Position numbers and translations under genes: made by a program. A model generated the notes under the pieces. The model did not search any database and was not told the origin of the DNA. It saw only the letters and a list, made by a program, of their open reading frames with translations. This document shows, piece after piece, positions 15,819-17,114 of a DNA stretch of 64,000 bases (within the stretch, counting starts at the first letter, position 1; every line of letters begins with the position of its first letter). This DNA is from an uncultured bacterium (lineage in GTDB: Bacteria; Patescibacteriota; Patescibacteriia; CAIQCM01): the NCBI GenBank assembly GCA_963708045.1, contig OY970181.1, positions 323,740-387,739 on the forward strand, written 5' to 3'.

Positions 15819-16086
15819 GGACAACACTGCCTTAGTGAGGTAACAGACCTCCTTCGAACTTTGACTAGCCATTGTCAAAGAGGTAGAAGAAAATTTGGCT
15901 ATTTCGGTGAACCTCCTTGTTTAAAAACAAGGACAATACCGAGGCAACCTGCAATGTGCAGAGAGTCCGTAGAGACTACACGCCAAAGTTTAACAATTGG
16001 TTAAATAAGATATAGTCCGAACTGCTTAGTAATAAGCAGAGCGTGATTGAACACCACGCCATTACAAAGTGTAATGTAACAACAAG
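15819..16086 (+). ncRNA. group I intron in 23S rRNA (insertion after CCTAAGGT, E. coli position about 1917)
   Basis: Exon sequence CCTAAGGT | intron | AGCGTAATCCCTTGTCGGGTGAGTTCCGACC matches the uninterrupted 23S; 5' exon ends in T and intron ends in G; conserved group I core elements R (cagagagtccgtagagactacacgcc) and S (aagatatagtccgaac) are present; 268 nt, no ORF. Confidence 0.75.
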
Positions 16087-16738
16087 AGCGTAATCCCTTG
16101 TCGGGTGAGTTCCGACCCGCACGAATGGCATAACGAGTTCATAACTGTCTTGACGATGTACTCGGCGAAATTGCAAGTGGCGTGAAGATGCGCTGTACTC
16201 GCAGCTGGACGAAAAGACCCCGTGAAGCTTTACTACTCCTTGCCATTGGATCATGTTTACTTATGTTCAGCGTAGGTGGGAGCCGCAAGGCGCCAATGAG
16301 ACACCACCCTTATGTTGATATGATTCTTACTGCAAACCGTGAATCCGGTTAGCGGAACAGTGGCTGGAAGGTAGTTTGACTGGGGCGGTCGCCTCCTAAA
16401 CAGTAACGGAGGCGTTTACAAAGGTAGGCTTGGCTCGGATGGAAATCGAGCTCAAAGTGCAAACGCAGAAGCCTGCTTGACTGCGAGGGTGATGGCCCGA
16501 GCAGAGACGAAAGTCGAAGTTAGTGATCCGACGGTCCCTCAGAGGAGGGCCGAAGCTCAACAGACAAAAGCTACTCCGGGGATAACAGGCTGATCTTGCC
16601 CAAGAGTCCATATCGACGGCAAGGTTTGGCACCTCGATGTCGGCTCATCGCATCCTGGGGCTGGAGAAGGTCCCAAGGGTTTGGCTGTTCGCCAATTAAA
16701 GCGGTACGTGAGCTGGGTTCAGAACGTCGTGAGACAGT

Positions 16739-17114
16739 GAGAATACCCGCGCTGTCTAAAAATCAGATCCAAGTCGCAATTCACAAGATGCGAAAGGATT
16801 CCGGTGTTGTCGCAAGATAACACTGGAGCTAAATGCTGGAAAATCTGGTCCGATCTTCTTTGGAGAGAAGATCAAAGAACTCGCACTAGTCGCGCAAGCG
16901 ACTGACAACGTGACGAGCGCAGACAATCAGCAGGAAAGGTTCTTCCATTACACGTAGAACAATCAACAATGGAAAGAAAATCCTCAGAGACTACACGCCT
17001 GATAGCTAGAAACCCCTAGTGAAAGATATAGTCCGAACTCTATGGCGACATAGAGAGTGCATCAGAAATGATGCGCCGGTTCAAAATTTATTTTTTGAAT
17101 TCGCAACATAATTG
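16739..17114 (+). ncRNA. group I intron in 23S rRNA (insertion after GAGACAGT, E. coli position about 2593, the I-CreI-type site)
   Basis: Exon GTCGTGAGACAGT | intron | TCGGTCTCCTATCC; intron ends in G; R (cagagactacacgcc) and S (aagatatagtccgaac) elements shared with the first intron; 376 nt, no ORF. Confidence 0.75.

Follow-up and report, generated by a model that had tools for sequence, protein, structure and literature searches.

The 64,000-nucleotide (nt) stretch of DNA analysed here (hereafter the window) is taken from contig OY970181.1 of assembly GCA_963708045.1, positions 323,740 to 387,739 of the forward strand, and contains a 23S rRNA gene that is interrupted by two inserts of 268 and 376 nt. 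With a probability of roughly 0.88, both inserts are complete group I ribozymes that splice themselves out of the pre-23S rRNA of a bacterium of the candidate phyla radiation (CPR), as remnants without an open reading frame (ORF). The positions of both, their secondary structures and the compensatory conservation of these structures are direct observations, whereas actual splicing and the loss of an endonuclease gene are inferred. They represent a further instance of a catalogued phenomenon that is ordinary for the host group, and their value beyond correct annotation is small: one more well-resolved, ORF-less pair of CPR 23S introns with exact boundaries and full secondary structures. In practice, rRNA gene callers as well as primer and probe design must allow for 644 nt of intron.

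The boundaries follow from a global alignment of the whole gene to one E. coli 23S copy (L001), in which the exons align cleanly and exactly two large inserts stand out in domains IV-VI. This confirms the two inserts and their lengths as given in an earlier, sequence-only reading of this DNA (the initial annotation). The gene is composed as follows.

13661-17395 (+): 23S rRNA gene, three exons and two introns, 3735 nt, about 3091 nt when spliced (Rfam LSU_rRNA_bacteria)
13661-15818 (+): exon 1, 3' end CCTAAGGT at E. coli U1931, just 3' of helix 69 (E. coli 23S alignment)
15819-16086 (+): intron 1, group I, site L1931, 268 nt, no ORF; first nucleotide G15819, omega G 16086 (Rfam, alignment, structure, covariation)
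16087-16738 (+): exon 2, E. coli 1932-2604, 3' end GAGACAGT 2 nt beyond A2602 (alignment)
16739-17114 (+): intron 2, group I, site L2604, 376 nt, no ORF; first nucleotide G16739, omega G 17114 (Rfam, boundaries, structure, covariation)
17115-17395 (+): exon 3, E. coli 2605 to the 3' end (Rfam and alignment)

Against LSU_rRNA_bacteria, the large-subunit (LSU) rRNA model, the gene scores 2273.7 bits over 13661-17395 and model positions 1-2925, i.e. the exons represent a full-length LSU rRNA without lesions by this score. After splicing, the expected ligated junctions would be CCTAAGGT joined to AGCGTAATCC for intron 1 and GAGACAGT joined to TCGGTCTCC for intron 2.

The E. coli copy is 2903 nt long and thus 1 nt short, with coordinates 1 below the canonical ones (its 1930 is 1931). 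This offset is visible from GGGAUAACAGGC, which starts at 2444 in the copy and at 2445 canonically, and the +1 correction was cross-checked against the helix 69 uridines U1911, U1915 and U1917. In canonical numbering, intron 1 lies between U1931 and A1932 (L1931; insertion point CCUAAGGU^AGCG, where CCUAAGGU ends at U1931). Intron 2 lies between U2604 and U2605 (L2604), with GAGACAGU ending at U2604, 2 nt beyond A2602 of the peptidyl-transferase centre. The initial annotation had put the first insert at about position 1917 and the second at about 2593, the classic I-CreI homing site, and these assignments have to be corrected. The first insert follows U1931 and not U1917 in the loop of helix 69, while the second follows U2604, 11 nt downstream of the I-CreI-type intron site, which we take to be the U2593/C2594 junction. 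Entries for L2593 are consistent with this junction (PMC1995217), and L1917 and L2593 are separate cognate sites with intron and endonuclease lineages of their own (PMC1995217, PMC11270868). Hence, the relabelling to L1931 and L2604 matters for any comparison of introns and of homing-endonuclease targets. The same annotation was right in that both 5' exons end in U (T15818 and T16738) and both introns in G (G16086 and G17114).

Assignment to group I rests on several lines of evidence, and here the initial annotation stands. The covariance scan that it had proposed as a check places both inserts above the gathering score of 50 bits of the Rfam model RF00028 (Intron_gpI), intron 1 with 69.8 bits (E = 1e-15, match 15809-16039) and intron 2 with 56.7 bits (E = 1e-11, match 16729-17055). 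The core elements R and S that it had seen in both inserts were recovered as a combined pattern (AGAGACTACACG, a gap of 15-45 nt, AAGATATAGTCCGAAC) that occurs exactly twice in the window, at 15971-16022 and 16986-17038, and in none of 100 shuffles. All core helices (P4-P6, P3-P8, the P3/P7 pseudoknot, the P7 pocket and J8/7) can be placed with standard pairs only, and none of the 188 pairs modelled across both introns is non-standard. Both share a P7 of GACUA/UAGUC plus a G-C pair and a bulged A, as well as the J8/7 sequence AAGAUAUAGUCC; P7 is invariant across the relatives and thus speaks through sequence identity only. Neither insert has the simple hairpin without ribozyme core of an RNase III-processed intervening sequence, since both contain full group I cores. 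Together, the Rfam scores and the hand-built P1-P9.2 structures, which are kept by compensatory changes in relatives, uphold the claim of two group I introns. The claim that neither carries an ORF holds as well: no ORF of more than 47 amino acids (aa) from a start codon is found on the + strand of either insert, and tblastn with LAGLIDADG proteins of related introns gave no match in the 64-kb window. Intron 1 accordingly lacks the single-motif LAGLIDADG gene of the L1931 group. The longest stop-to-stop frame (65 aa) is located in intron 2; a hidden endonuclease remnant was considered there and rejected, because this frame only reads the conserved P4'/P6 RNA ('SADNQQE').

For intron 1, the following elements were placed by hand.

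15812-15818/15829-15835 (+): P1, exon CUAAGGU with guide GCCUUAG, U15818·G15829 wobble at the 5' splice site
15837-15851 (+): P2, peripheral hairpin with compensatory changes
15859-15880 (+): P2.1, peripheral hairpin with compensatory changes
15894-15899/15982-15987 (+): P3
15904-15909/15937-15942 (+): P4
15914-15919/15928-15933 (+): P5, short, without extension
15943-15968 (+): P6 and P6a
15972-15978/16013-16018 (+): P7, GACUA/UAGUC plus G-C, A15973 bulged
15988-16006 (+): P8
AAGAUAUAGUCC (+): J8/7, followed by the P7 3' strand at 16013-16018
16022-16039 (+): P9, GUAA loop
16041-16059 (+): P9.1
16060-16076 (+): P9.2

None of the 75 pairs placed by hand deviates from standard pairing in the window. 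Their conservation was assessed in an alignment (A2) of the window with the ORF-less L1931 introns of four other loci (L084, L022, L029 and L021; n = 5), whereas a larger MAFFT alignment of 18 L1931 introns (A1) was left out of the pair counts owing to its poorly registered periphery. In the five sequences, 85.2% of the cells are paired, compared with 39-43% when the partners are slid, and 35 of the 75 pairs show compensatory change; none of 500 shuffles reaches any of these measures. P1 is kept in all five introns; pairing in P3, P4 and P5 amounts to 86-100%, and each of these helices has 3-4 compensatory pairs. RNAalifold, applied to the same five introns, independently recovers P1-P6, P8 and P9.

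For intron 2, the elements are as follows.

16732-16738/16751-16757 (+): P1, exon AGACAGU with guide GCUGUCU, U16738·G16751 wobble at the splice site
16762-16766 and 16828-16829/16997-17003 (+): P3, with a 5' strand split into AUCAG and GC, 3' strand GCCUGAU
16767-16827 (+): P3-internal insert, 61 nt, two hairpins
16767-16799 (+): P2 within the P3 insert, inner stem 16774-16793
16801-16826 (+): P2.1 within the P3 insert, GCAA loop
16834-16839/16927-16932 (+): P4
16844-16847/16920-16923 (+): P5
16852-16873 (+): P5a hairpin, in a three-way junction with P5 and P5b/c
16880-16917 (+): P5b and P5c, GCAA loop
16933-16935/16981-16983 (+): P6
16940-16978 (+): P6a and P6b
16987-16993/17029-17034 (+): P7, A16988 bulged
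17005-17020 (+): P8
AAGAUAUAG (+): J8/7
17038-17055 (+): P9, GCGA loop
17057-17076 (+): P9.1, GAAA loop
17078-17101 (+): P9.2

Here, all 113 pairs are standard. A metagenome junction scan yielded one contig with a homologue, an independent Joint Genome Institute (JGI) metagenome contig (L096) that contains a 365-nt intron at the same site as well as a 5S gene. Its exons are 100% and 97.9% identical to those of the window, the intron 83.4%. In this two-sequence alignment (A4), from which the pair counts derive, 99.1% of the cells are paired versus 35-42% with slid partners; 11 of the 113 pairs are compensatory and six more changes are one-sided, distributed over P2.1, P5a, P5b, P8, P9.1 and P9.2. 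A MAFFT alignment of four ORF-less L2604 introns (A3) was not used for counting, as its periphery is poorly registered. Rapid sequence change with preserved pairing is the pattern expected of a functioning ribozyme. In L096, the 3' end of the 5S gene and the terminator-like segment behind it are present a second time after about 210 nt (981-1040 and 1191-1250).

A minor peculiarity of intron 2 is its split P3. A P2/P2.1-like domain usually lies between P1 and P3, while the two hairpins P2 and P2.1 of this intron form a cassette between base pairs (bp) 4 and 5 of P3, 2 bp from the J3/4 core junction. A contiguous P3 as drawn by Rfam was rejected, because the split version forms seven of seven pairs and fits the pattern of the L2604 family. 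The cassette measures 61 nt in the window (16767-16827) and 53 nt in L096 (148-200), where it is kept with three compensatory pairs in P2.1. All 15 other L2604 introns compared have a contiguous P3 without it, as illustrated by the window context of CUAAAAAUCAG, 61 nt and GCUAAAUGCUGG versus the continuous CUAUAAAUUUAGCUAAAUGCUGG in locus L023. Neither the rest of the window nor the fetched loci contain a further copy of the 61-nt sequence itself; a comparable cassette occurs at the equivalent point UUUG^GC in the L1931 intron of a Sungiibacteriota genome (L051, about 5720-5805, - strand). The optional pairings of group I introns include one called 'P3.1' (PMC3873408); the cassette may correspond to this element and thus perhaps be already described.

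Based on established group I intron chemistry, both introns would be removed as follows. P1 would form between the internal guide of each intron and the final 7 nt of the exon before it, which places the U·G wobble where cleavage occurs. The P7 pocket would bind a free guanosine that attacks the 5' splice site, after which the terminal G of the intron would occupy the same pocket. Finally, the freed 3'-OH of the exon would attack the 3' splice site, with a short P10 helping the alignment; this step would join the exons and set the intron free. Selection probably keeps the ribozymes intact, because ribosomes could not function with an unspliced insert beside helix 69 or at 2 nt from A2602; given these sites and the usually single 23S copy of CPR genomes (PMC11270868), removal of the introns can be argued to be obligatory. 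Neither intron encodes a homing endonuclease, and hence neither can home alone. The initial annotation had offered loss of the endonuclease or its supply in trans as explanations; no gene of this kind lies in the window. Most likely, both introns are what remains, by vertical inheritance, of mobile introns that carried a LAGLIDADG gene. Many relatives at both sites still have this gene, and a putative loss of the endonuclease after fixation would fit the gain-and-loss cycle of such elements (PMC1995217).

Several points weigh against self-splicing remnants of this kind. Judging from the title of reference 28 in PMC11270868, the L1931 intron of Simkania negevensis is described as unspliced. In addition, intron 2 lies only 6.7 bits above the Rfam threshold, with P3 and P5 misaligned by Rfam, and its P3 insert, being 2 bp from the core junction, could in principle disturb folding. 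P10 as read from the sequence is weak in both introns, with four of five pairs (ACACU versus AGCGU) in intron 1 and about 3 bp (CGG/CCG) in intron 2, where the L2604 relatives have 4-5 bp (ACCG/CGGU).

The Simkania case bears in particular on the idea that the inserts derive from group I introns and yet are not spliced, either being retained as expansion segments or being cut out without ligation to give a fragmented 23S rRNA. Bacterial 23S rRNA is indeed fragmented by RNase III cleavage of intervening sequences (PMC11270868), and the same gene has non-intron hairpin expansions elsewhere (see below). Nonetheless, this scenario, the main rival, is improbable. The core pairings, the U·G wobble and the terminal G are all intact in both inserts, and stems change in a compensatory manner while intron 2 has diverged by about 17% from L096, as would be expected of a working ribozyme and not of a passive spacer. 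Moreover, a 376-nt insert retained 2 nt from A2602 is hard to reconcile with a working ribosome, and it has been argued that insertions clustered at the peptidyl-transferase centre must splice correctly (PMC11270868). Alternatively, the introns might be decaying relics that cannot self-splice and that either reside in a dead rRNA copy or depend fully on a host or trans-acting maturase. The absence of an intron ORF, and hence of a maturase or endonuclease in cis, the weak P10 and the unusual insert within P3 of intron 2 would suit such relics. This explanation is very improbable in view of the lesion-free exons, the complete lack of non-standard pairs and the compensatory upkeep of the P3 insert in L096, and a dead copy is unlikely as CPR bacteria usually have a single 23S copy (PMC11270868). 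Metagenome assemblies can also be chimeric at rRNA genes, in which case intron sequences of other community members would have been joined into the contig. The chance of such an artefact is close to nil, since the independent contig L096 has the same intron 2 at the same site with near-identical exons and a 5S gene, and since both junctions coincide exactly with known cognate intron sites in seamless exon sequence.

The ORF-less introns at L1931 and L2604 have numerous relatives. When 185,579 species-representative genomes were scanned for the R...S core common to both introns, 94 loci were returned, mostly from Patescibacteria/CPR, plus DPANN archaea and scattered other metagenome-assembled genomes. 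Among these loci are 39 L1931 introns of 241-1191 nt, about 22 of which are ORF-less (241-464 nt) and too short for an ORF, and 15 L2604 introns of 273-856 nt (17 with the window and L096); 34 stretches with the exon motif are uninterrupted at 2604. All 17 L2604 introns have AGACAGU paired with GCUGUC, a terminal G, a covarying P3 and a shared 3' end ...AUUG. Single-motif LAGLIDADG ORFs occur in relatives at both sites, and in the long L2604 introns this ORF starts in the P5 region and fills the P6 loop. The L2604 set displays the stages to be expected in a mobile-intron life cycle, i.e. introns with an endonuclease gene, introns without one and empty sites. At several loci (L023, L063, L050, L004, L016, L057 and others), both ends of the L2604 LAGLIDADG ORFs extend into the ribozyme core, with the ORFs reading through P5'/P4'/P6 as 'SADNQQE' and in several cases stopping in R/P3' as 'SETTR' plus stop codon. 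Recent duplication as the origin of the two window introns was rejected: exact identity between them is confined to the R (14 nt) and S (17 nt) segments, and their P4/P6 core types differ. The core type of intron 1 is also present in the L2604 intron of the Magasanikbacteria locus L007, and core types are thus not tied to sites.

Some L2604 introns were found in genomes labelled as non-CPR, namely L008 (OZ255718.1, a Capsulimonadaceae chromosome), L009 and L062 (both Elusimicrobia) and L011 (Hinthialibacteria). L008 matches the window in having both sites occupied, in its case by introns of 705 nt (L1931) and 742 nt (L2604) with homing endonuclease genes (HEGs). For this region of the 23S gene of CPR bacteria, several sites of group I insertion have been described as unreported in known bacteria (PMC11270868), and the HEG-bearing L2604 introns of the Capsulimonadaceae, Elusimicrobia and Hinthialibacteria loci would extend the host range of a site reported so far only from CPR. 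A more far-reaching proposal, which we regard as tentative and rather doubtful, takes the P3 cassette for a recurrent, transferable and undescribed peripheral module. If true, the cassette would add a minor structural variant to those known from group I introns.

The host of the window itself is indicated by its 23S exons, which are closest to an Uhrbacteria genome (83.6%) and then to a Magasanikbacteria genome (81.2%), by the tRNA-23S-5S layout and by DUF4012 proteins encoded in the window. These features point to a CPR (Patescibacteria) bacterium. In line with the remark in the initial annotation that intron-rich rRNA is typical of CPR, ORF-less group I introns in 23S genes are described in a survey of this group (PMC11270868). 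A single 23S gene was seen in the window, and it is followed by a 5S gene:

17552-17670 (+): 5S rRNA gene, downstream of 23S (Rfam 5S_rRNA, 86.1 bits)

No 16S rRNA gene is present anywhere in the 64 kb, and only a tRNA (12372-12454) precedes the 23S (13661-17395)/5S (17552-17670) pair. In the Magasanikbacteria locus L007, the order is likewise tRNA-23S-5S, and no 16S gene adjoins it. The rRNA operon thus appears to be split. Relative to E. coli, the 5' half of the 23S gene contains three further, non-intron expansions at 13891-13970 (about 79 nt), 14040-14177 (about 130 nt) and 14537-14567 (31 nt). The first and the last form long, near-perfect hairpins (-36.9 kcal/mol, z = -5.5, and -35.7 kcal/mol, z = -7.8, respectively). 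They resemble expansion segments or intervening sequences of the RNase III type, not group I introns.

Elsewhere in the window, an isoleucyl-tRNA synthetase-like ORF (44161-47646, +, 1161 aa) has a histidine-phosphatase domain (His_Phos_1, residues 500-668, E = 4e-39) inserted amid its class I catalytic domain. A large serine recombinase gene (3585-4961, -) starts some 40 nt away from a LOOT RNA motif (5003-5118, +, 77.1 bits), and a tRNA is encoded nearby (3213-3284); an integrated element may have its edge in this region (3585-5118). The run 18700-25900 contains several long ORFs that overlap one another on opposite strands, and the two ORFs tested (18723-19379 and 20602-21984) gave no Pfam match.

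In comparison with known systems, intron 1 joins a widespread group. The L1931 site is occupied in Thermotoga, Simkania, Synechococcus and many organelles, the organellar introns being classed as IB4 (PMC1995217, PMC3873408). With the L1931 introns of Thermotoga, Simkania, Synechococcus C1 and C9, green-algal plastids and mitochondria and Acanthamoeba mitochondria, intron 1 shares the insertion point, the P1/guide pairing and the elements R and S. With other ORF-less L1931 introns of metagenome-assembled genomes (L084 and L006), it shares 73-80% identity over 160-200 nt. In contrast, characterised bacterial L1931 introns measure 654-700 nt and encode an endonuclease of 143-167 aa, while intron 1 has no LAGLIDADG ORF. 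It also possesses P2 and P2.1 hairpins and a very short P5, whereas published descriptions of L1931 introns stress an absent P2 and a complex P5.

Intron 2 resides in the same stretch of the peptidyl-transferase loop as the L2593 introns, which include Cr.LSU of Chlamydomonas with I-CreI and those of Synechococcus and Thermosynechococcus, and the 22-bp I-CreI target overlaps its insertion point. However, the insertion points are 11 nt apart (U2593/C2594 versus U2604/U2605), and the P7.1 and P7.2 extensions of L2593 introns (Haugen et al., PMC1995217) are missing from intron 2, which is therefore not a member of the L2593 group. Two group I introns also interrupt the 23S gene of Coxiella burnetii and are self-splicing according to the title of reference 29 in PMC11270868, but both the insertion sites (L1917 and L1951) and the host lineage differ from those of the window.

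A direct parallel is offered by the CPR survey of Tsurumaki et al. 2024 (PMC11270868). A literature search under the label 'L2604' found nothing relevant; in that survey, position 2604 is a frequent insertion site of CPR 23S genes, one of 23IS12-14, and 1931 and 2604 are both listed among the intron hot spots. Group I introns were detected in 45% of 968 23S insertions, 222 of them ORF-less, in 348 CPR 23S genes. Citing earlier work, the survey states that the insertions are removed from the transcripts (PMC11270868). Although it stresses insertions that encode LAGLIDADG_1 proteins, which intron 2 does not, intron 2 agrees with the CPR 2604 introns in position, host group and Rfam test, and the survey reports ORF-less forms to be common.

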